Source: Promethearchaeota archaeon
GTDB taxonomy: Archaea > Asgardarchaeota > Lokiarchaeia > Sigyniarchaeales > SOKP01
Length of the DNA stretch: 64,000 nucleotides
Assembly (NCBI GenBank): GCA_030603385.1
Contig: JAUVXW010000013.1
Span: 1-64,000, forward strand
Reading direction: 5' to 3'
In this document: in pieces, positions 3,961 through 50,949 of the stretch
How positions within the stretch are numbered: the first letter of the stretch is position 1
Layout of the letters: each line of letters opens with the position of its first letter
Notes under the pieces: generated by a model
What the model was told of the DNA's origin: nothing
Databases searched by the model: none
What the model saw: only the letters and a program-made list of their open reading frames with translations
Position numbers and translations under genes: made by a program

Positions 3961-6740
3961 CTTGAATTTAAATATAATTTACTCACCAATTCCATAAGTT
4001 TATTTTTAGAATCTATATCCTCTGGATTATTAATTAATCGTTTTTGGTAAAAGATTATATTTGGATATTTCACTTCAAGTCTATTAAACAGCTTTACCCA
4101 GGATTCAAAGTTATTTAAATTTTCATATACTTCTGGATCATCTTCAAATAATTTTAGCTCCTTCTTCTCCTGAGTTGAGAAAATTTTTTTATATTTTTTA
4201 ACGCTAACACCTTGATCTTCTAGAAATTTCTTATTAGCTCTACGAACAAAAGCATCTAAGCCACTTCTCCACCTTACATATTTCTCATTTATTTTATCAA
4301 TTATTTCCTGGATTATTTTAATTTCTTGAGGAAAAATTGTTTCTTCATTCTTTGTTAATATTTTTTTAATCTTTTCAAATTCTGATTCAAATATTTGAAT
4401 ATAATTATTTACATTTTTCTCTAATTCAAATAGAACTGTATTATAATCCTTAGCAAATAATACTTCATCACTATAAAAAGTTAAAGTTTCTTCATCGAAT
4501 GTGCCTTTTAACTTCCTGTTTTTTATTAAATCATCAAAAATTACTCTCAATAATTCAATTTCATCCTGATTTAAATCTTTTCCATAAAATAAATCACTAA
4601 ATGAAAAAATGCTACTATTTTCCAGCATTAAGTTACGAATTCCTCTTTCTGTAAAAAATTTTATTTGTCCTTCATGTTCATAGAAAAGACCTTTCAATTT
4701 ACCATCCTTAAGTAAATCCTTTGTTAAGTCTTCAATCAAATTAGATCTAATATTTAAATTTCCTAAAACAAGGTAATCTTCTGATTTTGATTTATCTAAC
4801 AACAAATATTTAATATCCTTCTTGGCCTCTTCAATTTTTACTGGATTGAATATTAGTAGATCATCTTTTTTAAAGTAAGTAATCCCTAATTCATCAATAT
4901 ATTTTATAAAAGTTTCTAAATCCATTCCTGTTTTCTCAAGATACTCACTTGCTTTTATCTGATCTTTTTTCTTAATCTCTTCACCAATTAATTGTAGGTT
5001 CTCATCAATTTTTGTCACTATTAGATTTTTATCAATATTCAACTCTCTAGCTAATAAATCAATTTGCTTAGATTTTTCTCCTTCATCTGAAATCGAACTA
5101 ATTTTTTCTATTTTCTCTGTCAAATATTTAGAATAGTAGAAAACTTCCTTTCTTTTGTCCCAAATTCCACTTCTCTGATCAACGGTGTGATCAAATACAT
5201 CTATTAATAGGATTTGTCCTATATTTATTTTTTTTGAGTTCTTAATTATATCAAAGAATCCAAATATTTTCGAGCTTTGAATTTCATTTGATATTTTAAG
5301 AGTACCTAAGTTAGTTAACCATTGAGTTCCTTTATGATAATTAGATAAATAACCTTTAGGTAAATTTTTAATTAAATTAATAAAATCTTCATCAATCAAT
5401 CTTTCTCGATATGATTTTAAATCAATTACACTATTTTTTGCTGCCTCTCGATTTATTTGTTTTTGTATCTTCTTTAAAGAATAATAAATATTCTTATTTT
5501 TTCCTAATAGTAGTTTATCCTTTTGAGAAAGCCTTATGTCTTTTATTATGCCTCCTATAAACGGAGGTGGAAGGTAATTGTATTTCTTTATATTTATAAT
5601 TCCTTTTTGAATCAGGTCATCAACTAGTCTTGATTTAATGTAATTGTATGAATAGAATAATCCCAAATTTGAATAATAACCCTTAATAATTTTTAAATTT
5701 ATCAAAGTTTGGATAAAAATTTTTAATTCTGACTCATCTTGTATTATTTGAGAAAAAGTTTCTTGTATTTTTTCTTTAGATATTTTTAAACCTTCTTCAA
5801 AAAAGTCTATTAGCTTATCTCTTTCAAGTTCGTAAACAAATATTAAATTCGTTTTTGTTTTTGTATAGAAAAAAAACTTCTCATCTTTCAGCTCTGATTT
5901 TTTGATTTTTTTTATGTAGTCTTTTAATGATAAATTAGAATTTCTTGATATTTTAGTAAAATTATATTTTTTCATAAGAAACTGCTTATCTAATAAGTCC
6001 AATAAATCATTAATTCTCACAGTTTCTAAATTTTTCTCTTTCAAATCCGGAAAAAACCGAGAAATGACTTTTAATAGATCTGCAACAATTTTAGGCTCAA
6101 CATCATAATAAGATGAGACTAATGATTTTGAAATATCTCTCAGATAATATAACTGGTTAAAGCCCAAATCTTTACAGTATCCAAGCAAATTAAATAAAGA
6201 CAATAAATTTTCTTTAATTTGTTCCACAGAAAGACTCTTTAATATATTATCTTTAATAGAATTAACTAAATTTGGATTTTTTCTCACTAATTCAAGCAAA
6301 AAAAAGTGAACATTGTCTCTCATATCATCCAATTGGTCTGTTAAAAATTCTGCGAATTTATTAAAATACTTTTTAACAAGACTTTGATTTGCTAGAAGGG
6401 CAAATCCTATAACGATTAGTGAATTTACTCTTAATTTTGTATCGTCAGAATAGAGAAAAGTTTCTACTTTTTGAATAATTCTCTCGGTTATAAGATCAGT
6501 ATCATGTTCTGCTAAGATACTTAAAATATATGTTATAGGTACAGCATGTTCAGATTGATCTAATAAACTCTCTAATTCTTCTATTACTTTTATTACTTTT
6601 TGGGTTTTATTCTTACTTAGAAATTTGTTAAGCTTGTCAACAATAGGTTCAAGGACCAAATCGTTTTGAAATTCTTTTAGATTAAACATATATAATGCAC
6701 TGTAATTCTTAATCCAATAAGAATTTTTTGAATGGTTCAA
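3957..6740 (-). CDS. Large protein: N-terminal HEAT/ARM repeats, tandem winged-helix (PCI/UFL1-like) units, C-terminal helical region
   Basis: HEAT-like LYSDDTKLRVNSLIVIG and LTDQLDDMRDNVHFFL; repeated WH wings IKGYYS, LKGLFYE, LKGTFDEETLTF; true start may be TTG at 6659 since the longest ORF overlaps the HAD gene. Confidence 0.7.
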   Translation of the reverse strand: MNHSKNSYWIKNYSALYMFNLKEFQNDLVLEPIVDKLNKFLSKNKTQKVIKVIEELESLLDQSEHAVPITYILSILAEHDTDLITERIIQKVETFLYSDDTKLRVNSLIVIGFALLANQSLVKKYFNKFAEFLTDQLDDMRDNVHFFLLELVRKNPNLVNSIKDNILKSLSVEQIKENLLSLFNLLGYCKDLGFNQLYYLRDISKSLVSSYYDVEPKIVADLLKVISRFFPDLKEKNLETVRINDLLDLLDKQFLMKKYNFTKISRNSNLSLKDYIKKIKKSELKDEKFFFYTKTKTNLIFVYELERDKLIDFFEEGLKISKEKIQETFSQIIQDESELKIFIQTLINLKIIKGYYSNLGLFYSYNYIKSRLVDDLIQKGIINIKKYNYLPPPFIGGIIKDIRLSQKDKLLLGKNKNIYYSLKKIQKQINREAAKNSVIDLKSYRERLIDEDFINLIKNLPKGYLSNYHKGTQWLTNLGTLKISNEIQSSKIFGFFDIIKNSKKINIGQILLIDVFDHTVDQRSGIWDKRKEVFYYSKYLTEKIEKISSISDEGEKSKQIDLLARELNIDKNLIVTKIDENLQLIGEEIKKKDQIKASEYLEKTGMDLETFIKYIDELGITYFKKDDLLIFNPVKIEEAKKDIKYLLLDKSKSEDYLVLGNLNIRSNLIEDLTKDLLKDGKLKGLFYEHEGQIKFFTERGIRNLMLENSSIFSFSDLFYGKDLNQDEIELLRVIFDDLIKNRKLKGTFDEETLTFYSDEVLFAKDYNTVLFELEKNVNNYIQIFESEFEKIKKILTKNEETIFPQEIKIIQEIIDKINEKYVRWRSGLDAFVRRANKKFLEDQGVSVKKYKKIFSTQEKKELKLFEDDPEVYENLNNFESWVKLFNRLEVKYPNIIFYQKRLINNPEDIDSKNKLMELVSKLYLNSS

Positions 6741-7434
6741 TTTCTAAAATATCCTTAATCTCTTTAAGTATAAAGGAAGGCTTTGAATCCTCTAAACTTT
6801 CTTTAGTGCCATGACCAGAAAGTAACGCAATACTATTGATTTCTGCGTTTTTAGCACATTGAACATCATGAGGGAGATCACCTACATAATAAACGTCGTT
6901 GTTATCTATTAAAAGTTTAAAATCTTTCTTAATTTCTTTTAAGGCGGCATAAATTGGATAAGGATTTGGTTTCCTGTAAGGTGTATCGTCTCGTGAGATA
7001 AAAACAGAAAAATATTTGTGTAAATTAAACTTTCGAATGAAGTGATCTAACCGATTTCCCCTTGTATTAGAAATTATTCCTAAGATAAACTTATTTTCCT
7101 TAAGTTTGATTAATACATTCTCTAAATTGGGCTTTAGAGTTTCATATTTTTCATATTTAGGATAAGTATTCCTGAATTTCATAAAGAATAGAACTCTTTT
7201 CCATAAACGGGGTATATATTGTTTATAGTCTTTAACTATTCGTAATAAAGCTTTTACTCTATTCTTTGAATCTGCCTCTTCAAACATTCGAGCTAAGTCT
7301 ATAAGCCTTAAATTTTCAGTATTTCTCCAATTATAAAAGCTTTTTTTTAAAAAGACAGAAGCTGTATATTCTAAAGATTTTTGTGTAATGATAACTCCAT
7401 CAAAATCAAATAGTACTATAGGTTGATGAGACAT
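6709..7434 (-). CDS. HAD-superfamily hydrolase (phosphoglycolate phosphatase-like)
   Basis: LFDFDGVI motif I, GIISN motif II, KPNP motif III, YVGD...D motif IV. Confidence 0.9.
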   Translation of the reverse strand: MSHQPIVLFDFDGVIITQKSLEYTASVFLKKSFYNWRNTENLRLIDLARMFEEADSKNRVKALLRIVKDYKQYIPRLWKRVLFFMKFRNTYPKYEKYETLKPNLENVLIKLKENKFILGIISNTRGNRLDHFIRKFNLHKYFSVFISRDDTPYRKPNPYPIYAALKEIKKDFKLLIDNNDVYYVGDLPHDVQCAKNAEINSIALLSGHGTKESLEDSKPSFILKEIKDILEIEPFKKFLLD

Positions 7435-43731: not shown

Positions 43732-45288
43732 TTAAAAAAAGATAAAATCTAGATCCTCAGATTCACAAAACCTATTTAGCTTTCCGGGAAGGTCATTGTT
43801 AGATAAATCGATGTATTGTAATGAATTAAGCTCTTTTTGCTCCTTGAACTTAATAATTTGATTATTTTCTAAGCTAACTCCTTGTAATCTCCTTAGCCCA
43901 TCTAATCCTTCCAGAATAGTGATCTTATTATTTTTAAGTCGAAGGTATCTTAAATCATGTAATAATTTTAAACCTTTTATTTTTGTTATTTGATTATAGC
44001 TTAAGTCTAAATCATTTAGATTCTTAAGCGTTTCCAACCCTTTAATCTCTGTAATGCGATTTTTCTCCAATCTTAAACTTTGTAAGTTCTCAAGATATGC
44101 CAATCCTTCAATATTATAGATGCCGTTCTTGTTTAGATTTAACCCCTGTAATTTATGTAAATTACTCAATCCTGTGATTCTTTCAATATTATTATAACTT
44201 AAAATTAATCGTTCCAAATTTTTTAAATTTTCTAAACCTTTAATTTTATGAATAGAATTGAAATAAATATCTAATTTTTTTAGGTTTTGAAGATAATCAA
44301 GCCCTTTAATTTCATTAATTTTATTACTTGCAAGATATAACTCCTCCAAGTTTTTTAAATTCTCAAGTCCAGAAATCTCTTCGATCTTATTAGATGATAA
44401 ATTAAGGAACTTCAAGTTTGTTAATGCGCTTAATCCATTTATAGCCTTGATTTTATTTCGATCTAAATTCAACCTTTCCAAGCTTTTTAGATTCTCAAGA
44501 TTATCAATAAAAGTTAGTGATTCTTGTGAAATATTTAATCCTTTTAATCCGGAAAGCTTACTCAGACCTTTTATATCGCTTATTCTCTCAACATTCTTAA
44601 CAGTTAGTGTTCCATTTTTCATGAAAGCCTTTTTTCCCTTGCACAAGACATATTGATAATTCAATAATTCTTTTTCGGGGCACATTACTTGCATATAATC
44701 AAATAACTTATCCTTCATTTCATAAAGTGTTTTTGTGTTGTTGAATTTCTCAATGAAAAAGTCTTTGATCCTATCTTTTTCGTCTAAAGCTAAGTTCTGA
44801 AAAAGGGAATGGAATTCTTCATGAGTCAAAAAATTATAATACTTCTCTTCTAATAAAAATTGAATTGTGCTCCAGTTTTTGCTTGATAATTTTTTCGCAA
44901 TCTCTTCTTTAAAAACTTTTTTGGCTAATGGGTCTCCTACTTCTGTTAATTTTTTTAGTAATGGGAAGGCAAGGTTTGAATGTATAAGGTTTGTATTATA
45001 ATCTTCCTCGTACCACACTTGAAGATTACTGCTATGTCCCAAAAACTCTAATTCAGGTGAGATTCTCTTTGATTTATTATTGTAAGAAGGATCTAAAGAC
45101 ATATCGAGTTTTACAGCAACTTCATCAATAGATCCAACGTCGTCTAAAAGGTAGATCTCGTCTACAGAAATATCCAATAATAAAAATTTACATTGGTCAA
45201 ATCTCTCCCCGTTTACATATATGATAGTTTCTTTTCCTTCAAGCTTTAAGGCAATATATTCATTTACCTTGAACTCTTTAGTATCCAT
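43732..45288 (-). CDS. SDS22-type LRR protein with uncharacterised N-terminal domain
   Basis: About 11 repeats of LxxLxLxxNxIxxIxGLxxL; N-terminal EFKVNEYIALKLE...GHSSNLQVW...LAFPLLKKL..GDP.AK..FKEEIA. Confidence 0.9.
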   Translation of the reverse strand: MDTKEFKVNEYIALKLEGKETIIYVNGERFDQCKFLLLDISVDEIYLLDDVGSIDEVAVKLDMSLDPSYNNKSKRISPELEFLGHSSNLQVWYEEDYNTNLIHSNLAFPLLKKLTEVGDPLAKKVFKEEIAKKLSSKNWSTIQFLLEEKYYNFLTHEEFHSLFQNLALDEKDRIKDFFIEKFNNTKTLYEMKDKLFDYMQVMCPEKELLNYQYVLCKGKKAFMKNGTLTVKNVERISDIKGLSKLSGLKGLNISQESLTFIDNLENLKSLERLNLDRNKIKAINGLSALTNLKFLNLSSNKIEEISGLENLKNLEELYLASNKINEIKGLDYLQNLKKLDIYFNSIHKIKGLENLKNLERLILSYNNIERITGLSNLHKLQGLNLNKNGIYNIEGLAYLENLQSLRLEKNRITEIKGLETLKNLNDLDLSYNQITKIKGLKLLHDLRYLRLKNNKITILEGLDGLRRLQGVSLENNQIIKFKEQKELNSLQYIDLSNNDLPGKLNRFCESEDLDFIFF

Positions 45289-45381
45289 TACTATTATAAT
45301 TATATATCTCCCTTTTAAATCTTAGGTGGATAATAATTTTTTAAACCACTTTAATTGGTTATGTTATCATGACAATAGTTC

Positions 45382-45470
45382 AAAAAAAAAGAATATTAAT
45401 TATGGGAAAATAACGTCAAGGTTCTTTCCCGTTTTTACCCGGTGTCCCGAATATCTCTTATGAGATCGCT
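45382..45470 (-). other. Structured 3' UTR and U-tract terminator of the ubiquitin-like gene
   Basis: Minus-strand hairpins AUCUC-AUAA-GAGAU, UCGG-GACA-CCGG, GGGAAA-N15-UUUCCC, then U9. Confidence 0.45.
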
Positions 45471-45473
45471 TAA

Positions 45474-45731
45474 TTACAGGAATCCGCCTGCTTGCGTAGC
45501 CATTACTGTTATAACGTCTTTCTTTGGATGAATTCCTATTTTAGTGAATTTTAATTGATCAGGTAATACTTTTCCTTTAAATATGAATTGTATAGCTAGG
45601 ATAGGGTTCAACTTATATTCACGTTGTACAGTTTTCTTAATCTCTGCTATTGAATTATTAGGATCAAGTTCAATTAGTTTAATTGCTTGATCAGGGGGTA
45701 CACCAGTAAGTCTAAATCTATATTGAGTCAT
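45474..45731 (-). CDS. Ubiquitin/SUMO-like protein with di-Gly and two-residue pro-extension
   Basis: 85 aa beta-grasp pattern: SIAEIKKTV, FIFKGKVLPD (cf. ubiquitin LIFAGKQLED), ITVMATQAGG-FL. Confidence 0.85.
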   Translation of the reverse strand: MTQYRFRLTGVPPDQAIKLIELDPNNSIAEIKKTVQREYKLNPILAIQFIFKGKVLPDQLKFTKIGIHPKKDVITVMATQAGGFL

Positions 45732-45882
45732 TTTAAATCATAACTTTTTTTTTAATTAATTCTTTCTATATATTATTAAAAAGATATTGGGTAATTTTCT
45801 ACTTAAGGTCTTTGGTATTTTTTTGTTGACTCTGGTATACTTAAATCAATGTTAAATGTTTAATATTATCAATGGACATTTT

Positions 45883-46077
45883 TTAGTCTTTTTTAAATCG
45901 AAAAGGTTCTAGTGGAGGCCCTGGTGGACCAGGTGGAGATGGAATGGGTCCAGGTTGTGGGCGTGGTGGAAAGCGTCCTAATCTACTTTCTATATAGGAT
46001 ATACGTTGTTCTAATTTATTTAATCTCTCTTCAATCACCTTTATTCTCTTTAATATGTTTGGATCTTCAATCGACAT
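45883..46077 (-). CDS. Small coiled-coil protein with proline-rich tail
   Basis: ILKRIKVIEERLNKLEQRISYIESRL heptads then FPPRPQPGPIPSPPGPPGPP. Confidence 0.75.
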   Translation of the reverse strand: MSIEDPNILKRIKVIEERLNKLEQRISYIESRLGRFPPRPQPGPIPSPPGPPGPPLEPFRFKKD

Positions 46078-46214
46078 TTGCAATAAAATTCTTAAATAAT
46101 TATGATTACTATATCAAGTTTTAAAATTAATTCCTAAGTTATTAAAATTTTATGTTAGATTAATTTTTAAACAAAATATACTCAATTTAATGCGATTAGT
46201 ATTTCACCAGTTTT

Positions 46215-46261
46215 TTAGTATAAGTATAATAAAAAAGTATACTTTTTTATAGTTATACTAA
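46215..46261. promoter_or_regulatory. Long inverted repeat (operator candidate) between divergent genes
   Basis: Perfect 22-bp palindrome ATAAAAAAGTATACTTTTTTAT (46229-46250) flanked by TTAGTATAA / TTATACTAA arms. Confidence 0.65.
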
Positions 46262-46273
46262 TATTATATTATT

Positions 46274-47383
46274 ATGGAAACCTGGAACATTTCAAAAAAA
46301 TTAAAGAGTGAGCTATTAAAAAAATCTAGCAATATCGAGGATAATAGTAGGAGAATATTATTTATTCTTAGAAATTTAGGTCCACAAAGATTCACTAATT
46401 TAATAAAATATTCAAATTTAAGCAGATCGACCGTATCTAAATATCTTAATTTTCATAGAAAAAATAAAAACGTAGAACAAAGATTATTTACAGATAAACA
46501 AACAAATAAGCAATATCGTGGTTACGTGATTACTGAAAGGGGCATCGAAAAACTTGGAGAAGGACCTTTAAAATTAAAAGATGAGTTATTTTTAGTTAAT
46601 GAATTAAAAGAAAATGTCAGAAAACTCGAAGATCTAATAGATTTTTATAAGGAAATAAATGTAGTAGATGCATTTATAATCCATATAGTAAGAATTATAT
46701 CTAAAATAGGTGATAATTTTTTTGAGCTACAGCAAGATAGAGATCTGTATTTATCACTTTTTTACATCTTTTATAACTCGATCTTAGGACAAGGTGCTTT
46801 TGCAAGAATTTATTGGCATTTTGATAAGTCTAGTTCTCAAAAATTTGTTGGCTATAAATTAAATTTAGATCAATTTTGTGAAGTTTATAAGGTTTCAAGA
46901 GAGGCAATTAATTATTTAGCTAGGTCTAAGTTGATAAAGAGTAATTTTGGGTTTTATTTAATTCAAAGAGAAGATACAGATTTCTTTTTTCACGAGGAAG
47001 ATTTGTTGGGAACAACAACTCTTAGGCTCATTAAAGACAAATTAATTGATGAGATCATTAATCTTCAAGAAGGCATTTACGATATGATTTATGATTTAGA
47101 CATTATGGCTGAAGAAATTACAAACCAATTAAAAGAAATGGGTTTAATATGGGATGCAATTCAAGCACAATTTCAGTTATTGGTCTTAAATCAAATTATT
47201 AAGAACGCAATAGAAATGGGTTTTTTAGATATAGAAAGAGAAAAATTAATGGAAGGAATTACCCAATCAAAAAAATTGTTAATGTCTAAAGAAGGTAAAA
47301 TGCTTAAGAAATCCATTTTTAATGGCTTTAATATTGATTTAAATTTGAATACCCTTACTTTAACGTCAAATCAAGAATCTTAA
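46274..47383 (+). CDS. Winged-helix (MarR/ArsR-like) regulator with large helical C-terminal region
   Basis: ILFILRNLGPQRFTNLIKYSNLSRSTVSKYL...YVITERG. Confidence 0.75.
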   Translation: METWNISKKLKSELLKKSSNIEDNSRRILFILRNLGPQRFTNLIKYSNLSRSTVSKYLNFHRKNKNVEQRLFTDKQTNKQYRGYVITERGIEKLGEGPLKLKDELFLVNELKENVRKLEDLIDFYKEINVVDAFIIHIVRIISKIGDNFFELQQDRDLYLSLFYIFYNSILGQGAFARIYWHFDKSSSQKFVGYKLNLDQFCEVYKVSREAINYLARSKLIKSNFGFYLIQREDTDFFFHEEDLLGTTTLRLIKDKLIDEIINLQEGIYDMIYDLDIMAEEITNQLKEMGLIWDAIQAQFQLLVLNQIIKNAIEMGFLDIEREKLMEGITQSKKLLMSKEGKMLKKSIFNGFNIDLNLNTLTLTSNQES

Positions 47384-47462
47384 CGACTGTGGTATTTTAA
47401 AAGGATTGGGATTTTAATTAAATACATCTTCAAACCAACAAAAATCCTAACTCGTTTGGAAT

Positions 47463-48983
47463 ATGCTTGAATTTCAATTATATGGTGTGTTAATTATCCC
47501 ATTAGTTATCTTTTTCATAGCGATTAGACAATTAAATCAAAAAAAAGAATTTAAAATTAACCAATATCTCAAATTAAAACTTGAGGGCGGAAGAACTAAT
47601 GTATATGTAAATAATCGACGATTTATGCAATGTATGTACCTGTTATTAAATATTGCCGTTGATAGAATTGAGGAATATGATGAGATTGGATCAATCGATG
47701 AAGCTGCTGTAAAATTAGATCGTTCTATGGAAAGAAATCATCGTAAAGTTCCACCAGAAACAGAATTTTGGGGGCATTGTTCTAATATACAAGCTTGGGC
47801 TGACAATGAATATGATACAAGAATTCTTCATCGAAATATAGCTTTCCCTTTACTAAAAGCACTTGTTGATGCGGGAGATCCTATTGCTAAACGAAAATTT
47901 AAAGAAGAAATTGCGTTAAGATATGCAACAGGACACCCTACTGTTATTAGATTCTTAACCCAAAATGGTTATTTACATTACTTAACCGAAGATGAATTTG
48001 AAAGTCTGTTAATTGATATAGACTTTCCAAGTATTGATGAATATTCCAGAAAAATCATACCAAAACTAGATAAAGCTTTAGATCCTGAATCTATCAAACT
48101 AATAAGACAACATACTTCTACCTTCATAAATAAATTTCGATTTAAATATAAATATCTAATTTTATTGAAGGTTTTAGAGAAAGTGCCGGATAAAAGACAA
48201 GAGTTTGTAGAAATTATTTATAATAAATATAAGAATGTTAGAAGCTTTCCTATACTTAAATTTTTGAATAAGGCTCAAATCAATTTCAACAAATTGGACC
48301 TTAAAATTATTTCTTATAATGAAAGATTAATTGGTCTAATTTTAGATTCAAAAACTAACTTAAAAAACAAAATGATTGAAAAAATAGAAGATATCAAAGG
48401 ATTTGAAGAATTTTCTGAAGATATTGAAGAAATAGATTTGAGTAATAATAGGATAAATAAAATAATAGGACTTGAGAATCTTAAAAACCTAAAGAAATTA
48501 TATTTAAAAAACAACTACATTGAAAAAATCGAAGGGTTGGAAAACCTAACTAATTTGGAATTTTTAGATCTTTCGGGAAATATTAATATCGAAGAAATTC
48601 CGGAATGTTTAAATAAATTATCTAGCCTAAAAACTGTTAAATTAACAGGATGTAGAATTGGAAAATTCTCTGAATCAACATCACGATTTTTTTGGATGGG
48701 ACAAAATTTTAGATATTTTACAAAATATACAAGCGAAGACATTAAATATTATGAAGAAACTCATGCTTCAAGGGCAGGAGTTAATGGAAGACTTTATAAA
48801 AATTTTGTGAAATGGTTATTTAAAATAAGGAAAATGATGAAGAAATGTAATTTCAATTATGACGATATCAAAAATTTCGAAAAGAAAACCAATTTACAAG
48901 CAATTTATTCCGGAAAACCAACAAAAACTTTCTTGAAGCACCTTGATGACAAAAAACAAATAAGAATAACAAAATTTATGTAA
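47463..48983 (+). CDS. LRR protein with N-terminal TM segment and the same uncharacterised domain as 43732-45288
   Basis: LYGVLIIPLVIFFIAI; EFKINQYLKLKLE...EFWGHCSNIQAW...IAFPLLKAL..GDP.AK..FKEEIA; about 4 LRRs. Confidence 0.88.
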   Translation: MLEFQLYGVLIIPLVIFFIAIRQLNQKKEFKINQYLKLKLEGGRTNVYVNNRRFMQCMYLLLNIAVDRIEEYDEIGSIDEAAVKLDRSMERNHRKVPPETEFWGHCSNIQAWADNEYDTRILHRNIAFPLLKALVDAGDPIAKRKFKEEIALRYATGHPTVIRFLTQNGYLHYLTEDEFESLLIDIDFPSIDEYSRKIIPKLDKALDPESIKLIRQHTSTFINKFRFKYKYLILLKVLEKVPDKRQEFVEIIYNKYKNVRSFPILKFLNKAQINFNKLDLKIISYNERLIGLILDSKTNLKNKMIEKIEDIKGFEEFSEDIEEIDLSNNRINKIIGLENLKNLKKLYLKNNYIEKIEGLENLTNLEFLDLSGNINIEEIPECLNKLSSLKTVKLTGCRIGKFSESTSRFFWMGQNFRYFTKYTSEDIKYYEETHASRAGVNGRLYKNFVKWLFKIRKMMKKCNFNYDDIKNFEKKTNLQAIYSGKPTKTFLKHLDDKKQIRITKFM

Positions 48984-50202: not shown

Positions 50203-50943
50203 TTATTTAGAGCAAAAACAACTTTCATTCTTAACAATATCTATAATATTAAACCTTAAATCTATTAAATTAACCATCAGAACTTTATTTTCCAGATTCG
50301 GGAGACCTAAGGCTGTTTTTATTACTTCTAAAGCTTCTAATGTACCTAAAATACCAGGAGTCACACCAATTACTGGTAAAGGACCTTCCTCTGGAGGGGC
50401 TTCTATAGGTTCTGAAAAAACACATTGATAACAAGCAGTCTTTTTTGGATTTATTGTGATAATTTGTCCGTAAAAATCTTTGATCCCCGAAATAACACAT
50501 CTTAAATTGTTTTCAATAGCTATTTTGTTAACTAGGAATTTAGTTTCAAAATTGTCACTACAATCGACTATAAAATCATAATCCTTTTCTTCTAAATATT
50601 TCTTTATCGATTTTTCATCAATAAAATCTTTATATACATTAATTTGAACATCTGAATTAAGTTTTGATAATACTTCTTTAGCAGAATTCACCTTGTCTTT
50701 TCCAATTTGAGATTCATTATAAAGAATTTGTCTTTGCAGATTTGAAAGATCTAAAACATCATTATCTATTATTGTTAATTCTTTAATCCCTGCTGCCGTT
50801 AAATACAGTGAAAAGGGCGAACCCAAGCCTCCACAACCTATCTGTAGGATTTTTAACTTTGAAATCTTTTCTTGTCCTTTTTCTCCAATTTCTGGAGATA
50901 TAATTTGGCGTGAATATCTCTCCTTTTGCTTTTCAGTTAATAT
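50203..50943 (-). CDS. ThiF/MoeB/HesA-family adenylyltransferase; true start at an ATA codon upstream of the ORF track call
   Basis: Frame open from ATA at 50943: (M)LTEKQKERYSRQIISPEIGEKGQEKISKLKILQIGCGGLGS; SNLQRQ, DCSDN, CYQC; in-frame TAG two codons upstream. Confidence 0.9.
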   Translation of the reverse strand: MLTEKQKERYSRQIISPEIGEKGQEKISKLKILQIGCGGLGSPFSLYLTAAGIKELTIIDNDVLDLSNLQRQILYNESQIGKDKVNSAKEVLSKLNSDVQINVYKDFIDEKSIKKYLEEKDYDFIVDCSDNFETKFLVNKIAIENNLRCVISGIKDFYGQIITINPKKTACYQCVFSEPIEAPPEEGPLPVIGVTPGILGTLEALEVIKTALGLPNLENKVLMVNLIDLRFNIIDIVKNESCFCSK

Positions 50944-50949
50944 AAACTA

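Follow-up and report, generated by a model that had tools for sequence, protein, structure and literature searches.

We analyzed a stretch of 64,000 nucleotides from a Lokiarchaeial genome (Promethearchaeota archaeon, assembly GCA_030603385.1, contig JAUVXW010000013.1, positions 1 to 64,000 of the forward strand), in the following called the window. It contains a gene for a ubiquitin-like protein (Ubl) that is bracketed by two genes for leucine-rich repeat (LRR) proteins, LRR-A and LRR-B, both of which start with the same N-terminal domain (NTD). Asgard archaea have an unusual excess of LRR proteins, the function of which has been stated to be unknown (bioRxiv 10.64898/2026.10.28.762692). Three lines of evidence tie the NTD to the Ubl, namely conserved gene pairs, the phyletic range and a predicted interface compared to controls, and they raise the possibility that the NTD is a docking module for this modifier.

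Gene organization of the Ubl/LRR locus

The locus comprises the following features (coordinates are those of the window, the basis of each assignment is given in brackets; aa, amino acids; ORF, open reading frame):

43732..45288, minus strand: LRR-A, soluble NTD-LRR protein of 518 aa with LRRs at about aa 235-500, immediately 3' of the Ubl gene (ORF, Pfam)
44764..45288, minus strand: NTD of LRR-A, aa 1-175, GHSSN variant (sequence comparison)
45474..45731, minus strand: Ubl, ubiquitin family, 85 aa, ...TVMATQAGG followed by an FL tail (PF00240)
45883..46083, minus strand: small coiled-coil (cc) protein of 66 aa with a Pro-rich tail (ORF; many relatives have a homologue in this place)
46215..46261, no strand: AT-rich inverted repeat just 5' of the start of the winged helix-turn-helix (wHTH) gene (repeat search; a role as operator is unsupported)
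46274..47383, plus strand: wHTH protein of 369 aa, wHTH at about aa 26-92 (weak HTH_45, HTH_5, MarR and Sso10a matches)
47463..48983, plus strand: LRR-B, membrane-anchored NTD-LRR protein of 506 aa with a hydrophobic anchor at about aa 5-22 (ORF, Pfam)
47535..48062, plus strand: NTD of LRR-B, aa 25-200, GHCSN form, the version modelled alone and together with the Ubl (AlphaFold2 (AF2), complex prediction)
50203..50946, minus strand: ThiF/MoeB/UbaA-type E1-like adenylyltransferase (PF00899)

A previous sequence-only reading of this DNA had proposed the order LRR-A, Ubl, Pro-rich coiled coil (all on the minus strand), wHTH regulator and LRR-B (both on the plus strand), and all five ORFs were found in these positions and orientations. 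Pfam searches detected LRR_4 in nine stretches of LRR-A (E 1e-39) and in two stretches of LRR-B (E 1.3e-14). The two proteins are 41% identical over about 390 aa (E 8e-62) and 48% over the first 170 aa or so, and the motifs previously quoted for their common N-terminal domain are present in both, giving a domain of about 165 aa that is 48% identical. LRR-B combines the motif GHCSN with an N-terminal hydrophobic segment, and in LRR-A the motif reads GHSSN and the segment is missing, as had been described. For the cc protein, the real start is probably an ATG two codons into the frame. A NadA gene lies between LRR-B and the ThiF gene, which is found 1.2 kb past the end of LRR-B. Genes for E2, RING or JAB proteins are not present within the window, which bears out the previous statement on E2 and RING and extends it to JAB.

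The shared N-terminal domain defines a large family

At 50% identity, the large family returned by an exhaustive profile search with the NTD falls into 2,829 clusters, and single genomes encode 1-22 copies; the genome to which the window belongs encodes at least 13 full copies in addition to fragments. In this genome the NTD is fused to LRRs, Ras-like GTPases (three), WD40 repeats, a transmembrane segment with zinc ribbons and helical repeats, and among 101 diverse members LRR (39), TPR (10) and Ras/Roc (6) were detected as Pfam partners. The domain is located N-terminally in 208 of 245 members. One undescribed domain is common to many LRR proteins of one large Lokiarchaeial family and to its TPR, WD40 and small-GTPase proteins; full-text searches of the literature found no description of the NTD or of a Ubl/LRR pairing.

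Two Cys motifs, Q-C-K/M and G-H-C-S-N, are conserved in the NTD. In an alignment of 132 sequences C33 is present in all members (132/132), followed by S83 (100%), N84 (99%), H81 (98%), Q86 (97%) and C82 (95%); across 245 diverse members position 82 is occupied by Cys in 227 proteins and by Ser in eight. An analysis of Cys conservation, which had been proposed as a check on the domain, consequently speaks for it. The previous reading had suggested that GHCSN and GHSSN may represent an active and an inactive copy. This could not be upheld, since an orthologue 62% identical to LRR-A carries the Cys, so that the Ser is a private substitution in LRR-A of this genome.

A first AF2 model of the NTD based on 13 paralogues (predicted local distance difference test (pLDDT) 75, poor at residues 34-70) was replaced by a model based on the 132-sequence alignment, which reached a pLDDT of 88 and in which about nine helices follow a four-strand beta unit. 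The NTD has no match in Pfam or NCBIfam, and the profile of the 132 sequences did not match any PDB sequence at E <= 1. Comparison of both models with the PDB by Foldseek yielded only matches with E > 1, the best Z in a VIA-wide comparison with 48,161 chains was 3.8, and the ESM Atlas, queried by features as well as by shape, yielded no proteins outside the family itself. Pfam searches detected no F-box in the NTD, no E2 domain (UQ_con) in LRR-A or LRR-B and no NEL domain in the NTD-LRR proteins at E <= 0.01; the latter also have no CxD motif. NEL, HECT, E2, RBR, SidC, F-box, papain-like and deubiquitinase (DUB) folds are absent from the match lists of the NTD, an absence that does not exclude such a fold. 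Judging from these comparisons, the NTD is an uncharacterised module.

An NTD-only protein (289 aa) is encoded at locus L100 (genome G021, contig C23, 4905-5774, minus strand), divergently from a Ras/Roc-type small GTPase gene (6285-6794, plus strand). This pair mirrors the NTD-GTPase fusions in the genome of the window (twice on contig C35 and once on C1).

The ubiquitin-like protein is a second modifier

The assignment of the gene between the two LRR genes as ubiquitin-like holds: the Ubl matches PF00240 with 36.6 bits (cut-off 25.4, E 3.9e-9) and ends with QAGG-FL. A profile built from 40 orthologues matches ubiquitin, the UBL domains of MDY2/GET5 and RAD23, and ISG15 in the PDB. We detected 196 homologues at 69-96% identity, and conservation of the protein amounts to 75-97%. 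Within its own family, 47/61 genomes have the gene, in most cases once. The alignment contains an invariant RLTGVPP loop and an invariant TVMATQAGG end. G82 and G83 are found in 40/40 orthologues; the variable extension after them has 0 to more than 40 residues, and many orthologues end exactly at the two glycines. From its sequence, the C-terminal Gly-Gly would be available for conjugation.

The canonical cluster of ubiquitin, E1, E2 and JAB genes is located elsewhere in this genome, at the end of contig C41 (133762-136487), which also carries the only clear E2 of the genome; this makes the Ubl a distinct, second modifier. Another E1-like protein (a 614-aa ORF) is encoded beside a JAB gene on contig C30 (69738-71146).

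Whole-genome searches showed that relatives encode proteins of 420-780 aa in which a domain on the N-terminal side matches the Ubl (31-53% identical), and in which neither the NTD nor another Pfam domain was detected. They are located at the following positions:

L089: 351-1706
L090: 926-2668
L091: 36-2369
L092: 1103-2371 and 11538-13142
L093: 390-2036
L094: 1428-3470

The site 3' of the Ubl gene is highly variable and is occupied by DUF362, ParE, acetyltransferase or restriction-modification genes or by an E1-like gene. In three assemblies that seemingly are devoid of the Ubl (L096, L097 and L098, on G057:C36, G042:C64 and G029:C141), the contig stops about 100-450 nt from the 5' end of the wHTH gene or within it. 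Assemblies may tend to break at the Ubl locus, perhaps because of Ubl paralogues.

NTD genes from separate lineages adjoin Ubl genes

We compared the locus in 40 relatives from the same family and, in a species-wide scan, inspected the neighbourhoods of the 80 best among 481 NTD loci. The core consisting of the Ubl gene, with or without the cc gene, and the divergent wHTH gene is kept in 39/40 relatives, and in 13/40 an NTD-LRR gene follows the wHTH gene, in the slot of LRR-B. The N-terminal hydrophobic segment is present in 10/13 LRR-B orthologues. The species-wide scan found a Ubl gene within 4 kb of LRR-B orthologues in 25/26 loci, and at locus L122 the Ubl gene is located directly 5' of the NTD-LRR gene. 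In the three genomes with only two NTD copies (G021, G028 and G036), one copy is the gene in the LRR-B slot.

Proximity is also found outside this arrangement. In 6/7 loci of a second Ubl paralogue (75-89% identical), the immediate neighbour is an NTD protein, and wHTH, cc and NadA genes are missing; five of these loci share their flanks and therefore represent one inherited locus. LRR-A-type orthologues follow the Ubl gene in genome G005 and on a metagenome contig, on which the ORF 5' of the orthologue has ...TVMATQAGGL as its C-terminus; for the LRR-A orthologue on L032, the C-terminus of the Ubl is encoded 198 nt upstream. In a maximum-likelihood tree, the proteins of the LRR-B slot and those adjacent to the Ubl paralogue form one short-branched clade (support 96/91), the proteins of the LRR-A slot (window, L031 and L052) form a second clade (88/92), and a case in G001 represents a third lineage. 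At least three separate NTD lineages thus adjoin Ubl genes.

The phyletic range was determined in 121 genomes of the phylum with a completeness of at least 80%. The NTD is present in 18/20 genomes of the window's own family, in 0/2 genomes of a second family (f2) and in 0/99 genomes of 23 other families; the corresponding values for the Ubl are 16/20, 2/2 and 0/99. In this sample, the Ubl is confined to the order and the NTD to the family of the window's genome. The previous reading had allowed for a chance linkage between Ubl and LRR genes; the three or more NTD lineages beside Ubl genes and the restriction of both genes to the same narrow clade argue against this. In more distant Lokiarchaeia the Ubl orthologue has unrelated neighbours, and the orthologue in Lokiarchaeum ossiferum has no LRR or wHTH neighbour.

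Near-identical loci of the LRR-B-slot type (L119 and several JBHL... records) were found in metagenome-assembled genomes (MAGs) whose labels read Hod-, Hermod-, Thor- and Odinarchaeota or, for one of them, "Nanopelagicaceae bacterium". Since these labels conflict with the GTDB-based range of a single family, mislabelling or contamination is likely, and NCBI taxon labels of MAGs were left out when the family range was set.

A complex between the NTD and the Ubl is predicted

Structure prediction of the domain together with the Ubl had been suggested as a further check. We modelled the NTD of LRR-B with residues 1-83 of the Ubl, and the Ubl was placed exactly on the Cys/His surface of the NTD. 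The median ipSAE of the pair is 0.75, and the best of three controls reached 0.16; the ipSAE mark is attained by 58/80 solved complexes and 2/110 mismatched pairs, counts that are only a rough guide here because custom alignments were used. Runs agree in at least 65% of the contacts, and the pLDDT of the partner is at least 83.

The predicted interface involves residues 32-39, 79-87 and 90-102 of the NTD and residues 8-11, 42-50 and 75-83 of the Ubl. On the Ubl side it corresponds to the L8/I44-type patch (the L8-T9-G10 loop and the strand with I50) plus the C-terminal tail, on the NTD side to the Q-C33 loop and the helix G-H81-C82-S83-N84-x-Q86. All conserved polar residues of the NTD (C33, H81, C82, S83, N84 and Q86) lie within this predicted interface. 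Conservation is higher inside than outside the interface for the NTD (0.77 vs 0.55, p 8e-5) as well as for the Ubl (0.98 vs 0.76). Many solved ubiquitin complexes show the mode of binding predicted for the Ubl side, with contacts to an Ile44-type patch and to the tail, so that the model may in part have remembered it; for the NTD side there is no solved homologue. Taken together, the modelling supports binding of the Ubl by the NTD.

The sequence-only reading had itself listed what would speak against it: a genome-wide scatter of the domain with no enrichment near Ubl/E2 genes, a buried or unconserved Cys, and no predicted interface with the Ubl. None of the three was found.

E1-like enzymes near the locus

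The window contains a gene for an E1-like protein of the ThiF family that had been overlooked before. The ORF at 50203-50946 matches PF00899 with 182 bits and the MoeB, ThiF and UbaA models of NCBIfam with 190-240 bits, which is below their equivalog cut-offs. Its frame is open for 40 codons 5' of the first ATG, GTG or TTG (50826-50946, minus strand), begins right after the stop codon of a Roadblock gene and encodes the conserved N-terminus with the sequence ..YSRQI..GCGGLG (GxGxxG) in this part. Read in this way, the frame implies a putative non-canonical start codon or another read-through arrangement. The ThiF gene is 4.5 kb away from the Ubl gene, and the Roadblock-ThiF pair is close to the Ubl locus in other genera, too. 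The ThiF protein of the window is a candidate activating enzyme for the Ubl; both the activation of the Ubl by a ThiF-type E1-like enzyme and the identity of the E1 that acts are presumed here.

In genomes G017 and G032 (L055:5123-6285 and L061:5131-6302) the gene for a different E1-like protein of the ThiF family overlaps the 3' end of the Ubl gene, forming a Ubl-E1 operon. This protein is 31% identical to the ThiF protein of the window and has no close orthologue in the window's genome, where the best match (32%) is on contig C41.

The wHTH protein, the cc protein and the inverted repeat

The protein previously called a wHTH regulator has matches in residues 26-92 to HTH_45 (21.2 bits), HTH_5 (20.3 bits) and MarR (18.2 bits), all just under the Pfam cut-off, and a sub-threshold NCBIfam match to Sso10a (19.6 bits). 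Its neighbours in a protein language model are all wHTH clusters, with scores of at most 0.87, and about 280 residues following the wHTH are without a family match. The wHTH is thus indicated by several weak matches, each of which falls below the family cut-off. The gene adjoins the Ubl gene in 39/40 relatives (36-87% identity), which makes it the most constant neighbour of the Ubl. Homologues of the cc protein are detectable by BLAST at the same site, between the Ubl and wHTH genes, in many relatives. For the Ubl, the wHTH and cc proteins may be of greater importance than the LRR genes.

The inverted repeat at 46215-46261, previously described as a palindromic operator, does exist; it has 19-nt arms that are 89% complementary and is located 13 nt before the ATG of the wHTH gene. 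It is one of 13 inverted pairs within 559 AT-rich bases, and its GTATAC core is absent 5' of the wHTH gene in 17 relatives. We therefore rejected the palindrome as a conserved operator.

Proposed role of the NTD and alternative explanations

We propose that the NTD is a clade-specific module for docking of the Ubl and that NTD-LRR proteins serve as adaptors or receptors of the Ubl system; we assign this a probability of roughly 0.5. Once activated by a ThiF-type E1-like enzyme, the Ubl would be held by the invariant surface of the NTD through its hydrophobic patch and its TVMATQAGG tail, and the variable C-terminal parts (LRRs, or TPR, WD40, helical repeats and small GTPases in paralogues) would provide specificity for targets or signals. 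LRR-A and LRR-B would be E3-like substrate receptors or receptors of the Ubl. LRR-B, the conserved core member, would act at the cytoplasmic face of the membrane, since basic residues follow its anchor and the positive-inside rule would place the NTD in the cytoplasm together with the Ubl; LRR-A would act as a soluble protein. The architecture, one constant domain combined with variable interaction repeats, favours an adaptor. Both binding in the cell and the choice of targets by the repeats are steps that we infer.

Several observations weigh against this proposal. The binding rests on one prediction method, and the best-defined contacts of C82 are those with the L8-G10 loop of the Ubl and not with its terminal Gly. 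A search for fusions of the NTD to ubiquitin, E1, E2, JAB or RING was negative for the 25 leading Pfam partner families of the 101 diverse members. At least 11 of the 13 copies in the window's genome are away from any Ubl, E1, E2 or JAB gene, and beyond this locus no copy in this genome is near a ubiquitin, E2, ThiF or JAB match; the same is true for distance from Ubl, E1, E2 and JAB genes in 5/6 copies on a closed chromosome and in about 45 of the 80 best loci. Adjacency to a Ubl gene is accordingly not a general property of the NTD family. In addition, LRR-B and the Ubl are neighbours in a generally syntenic block that also keeps the unrelated NadA gene, so that inheritance explains part of the adjacency and could explain much of it. 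Family f2, G008 and, as it seems, G029 and G057 have the Ubl but no intact NTD, so that the Ubl does not depend on the NTD. Finally, 29 NTD matches (about 18 of them substantial) but no Ubl or wHTH gene were detected in genome G059, which is 95% complete, although the locus may be unassembled. Presence and absence within the family are confounded, because three Ubl-negative genomes have a contig end beside the wHTH gene and a fourth is without the whole locus; dependence of the NTD on the Ubl is contradicted by no well-assembled case.

These points lead to the explanation that the two genes have no functional link at all, which we consider doubtful. The NTD would then be a general module for oligomerisation, localisation or regulation in a fast-expanding set of repeat proteins, one orthologue would lie by the Ubl in a conserved syntenic block, other copies would have landed in the variable hotspot 3' of the Ubl gene, and the predicted complex would be a false positive. 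Apart from the scattered paralogues, the variable position downstream of the Ubl and the missing fusions to ubiquitin-system proteins, this explanation gains from the observations that NadA is retained in the block as often as the NTD gene or more often, and that, according to the description of the tool, blind pairs of neighbours sometimes pass the complex test. It is at odds with the independent location of three NTD lineages beside Ubl genes, with the retention of a duplicated pair of Ubl and NTD genes without the intervening genes, with the narrow phyletic range common to both, and with a complex score far above the controls that involves invariant polar residues of both partners.

A further possibility, which we regard as unlikely, is that the NTD represents a new class of enzyme of the ubiquitin world, in which C33 and H81-C82 transfer or remove the Ubl and the LRR, TPR, WD40 or GTPase modules choose the targets. 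In its transfer form, which is more unlikely still, the NTD would be a Cys-dependent E2- or E3-like enzyme that forms a thioester with the Ubl on C33 or C82 and hands it over to targets that the LRR, TPR or WD40 parts bind, and would constitute an archaeal analogue of the NEL-LRR ligases on an unrelated fold. C33 is invariant and H81-C82 nearly so, both Cys segments lie in the predicted interface with the whole Ubl tail (residues 75-83), a constant domain is combined with variable recognition repeats, E1-like genes are found in or beside the locus, and no E2 or RING gene accompanies the Ubl in the window. Against this stands that the searches by sequence and by fold revealed no likeness of the NTD to E2, HECT, RBR, NEL or SidC, and that C82, for which Ser is tolerated in 8/245 members, is unlike a classic nucleophile because it is located mid-helix and contacts the L8-G10 loop. 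Very improbable is a Cys/His peptidase that trims the extension of the Ubl after the Gly-Gly or strips the Ubl from targets that the repeats choose: the order Q32-C33 ... H81 ... N84 recalls Gln-Cys-His-Asn sets, the tail of the Ubl is predicted to run across these residues, Ubl genes encode 0 to more than 40 residues after the Gly-Gly and no JAB gene is present in the window, but no papain-like or known DUB fold is among the matches of the NTD, many Ubl orthologues end at the Gly-Gly and need no processing, up to 22 copies per genome would be odd for a processing enzyme, and JAB proteases are encoded elsewhere in the genome.

If the NTD is indeed a docking module for the Ubl, a role could be given to thousands of hypothetical proteins, and the expansion of LRR proteins in Asgard archaea would obtain a function that can be tested. 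These archaea would have a second ubiquitin-type system that operates without E2 or RING, and the combination of a constant domain that handles a Ubl with variable recognition repeats would have arisen outside the eukaryotes. If, in turn, the NTD were an enzyme, archaea would possess a repertoire of ligases or deconjugases with thousands of members that is independent of the eukaryotic E3 families.

Comparison with known systems

Bacterial NEL-LRR ligases (IpaH, SspH and SlrP) resemble the NTD-LRR proteins in that both occur in multiple copies and combine LRRs with a constant domain in which a Cys is conserved and which acts on a ubiquitin-type protein, the latter being a prediction for the NTD. 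The order of the domains is reversed, however, the constant domain being N-terminal in the NTD-LRR proteins; these have no NEL match in Pfam, no CxD motif and no match to the NEL fold, and their partner is an endogenous Ubl and not the ubiquitin of a host. The F-box/LRR and F-box/WD40 proteins of SCF ligases likewise consist of a short constant N-terminal module and interchangeable repeats of the LRR, WD40 or TPR type and have undergone large lineage-specific expansions. In contrast to them, the NTD does not match the F-box, its predicted partner is the Ubl itself instead of a Skp1-like adaptor, and the locus contains no cullin or RING gene.

VHS, GAT, UBA and CUE domains contact the patch equivalent to L8/I44 with a mostly helical surface, as is predicted for the NTD. 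The NTD has no detectable relation to these domains and is far larger, and its predicted contact additionally involves the C-terminal tail in full as well as a cluster of invariant Cys and His residues. The archaeal SAMP/UbaA system and the ubiquitin-E1-E2-RING-Rpn11 operons of Caldiarchaeum and Asgard archaea (PMC5654768, PMC6043591) share with this locus a small beta-grasp modifier ending in Gly-Gly and a nearby E1-like protein of the ThiF family. Compared to these, the Ubl described here is a separate protein restricted to one order, and in place of E2, RING and JAB proteins its conserved partners are the wHTH, cc and NTD-LRR proteins.

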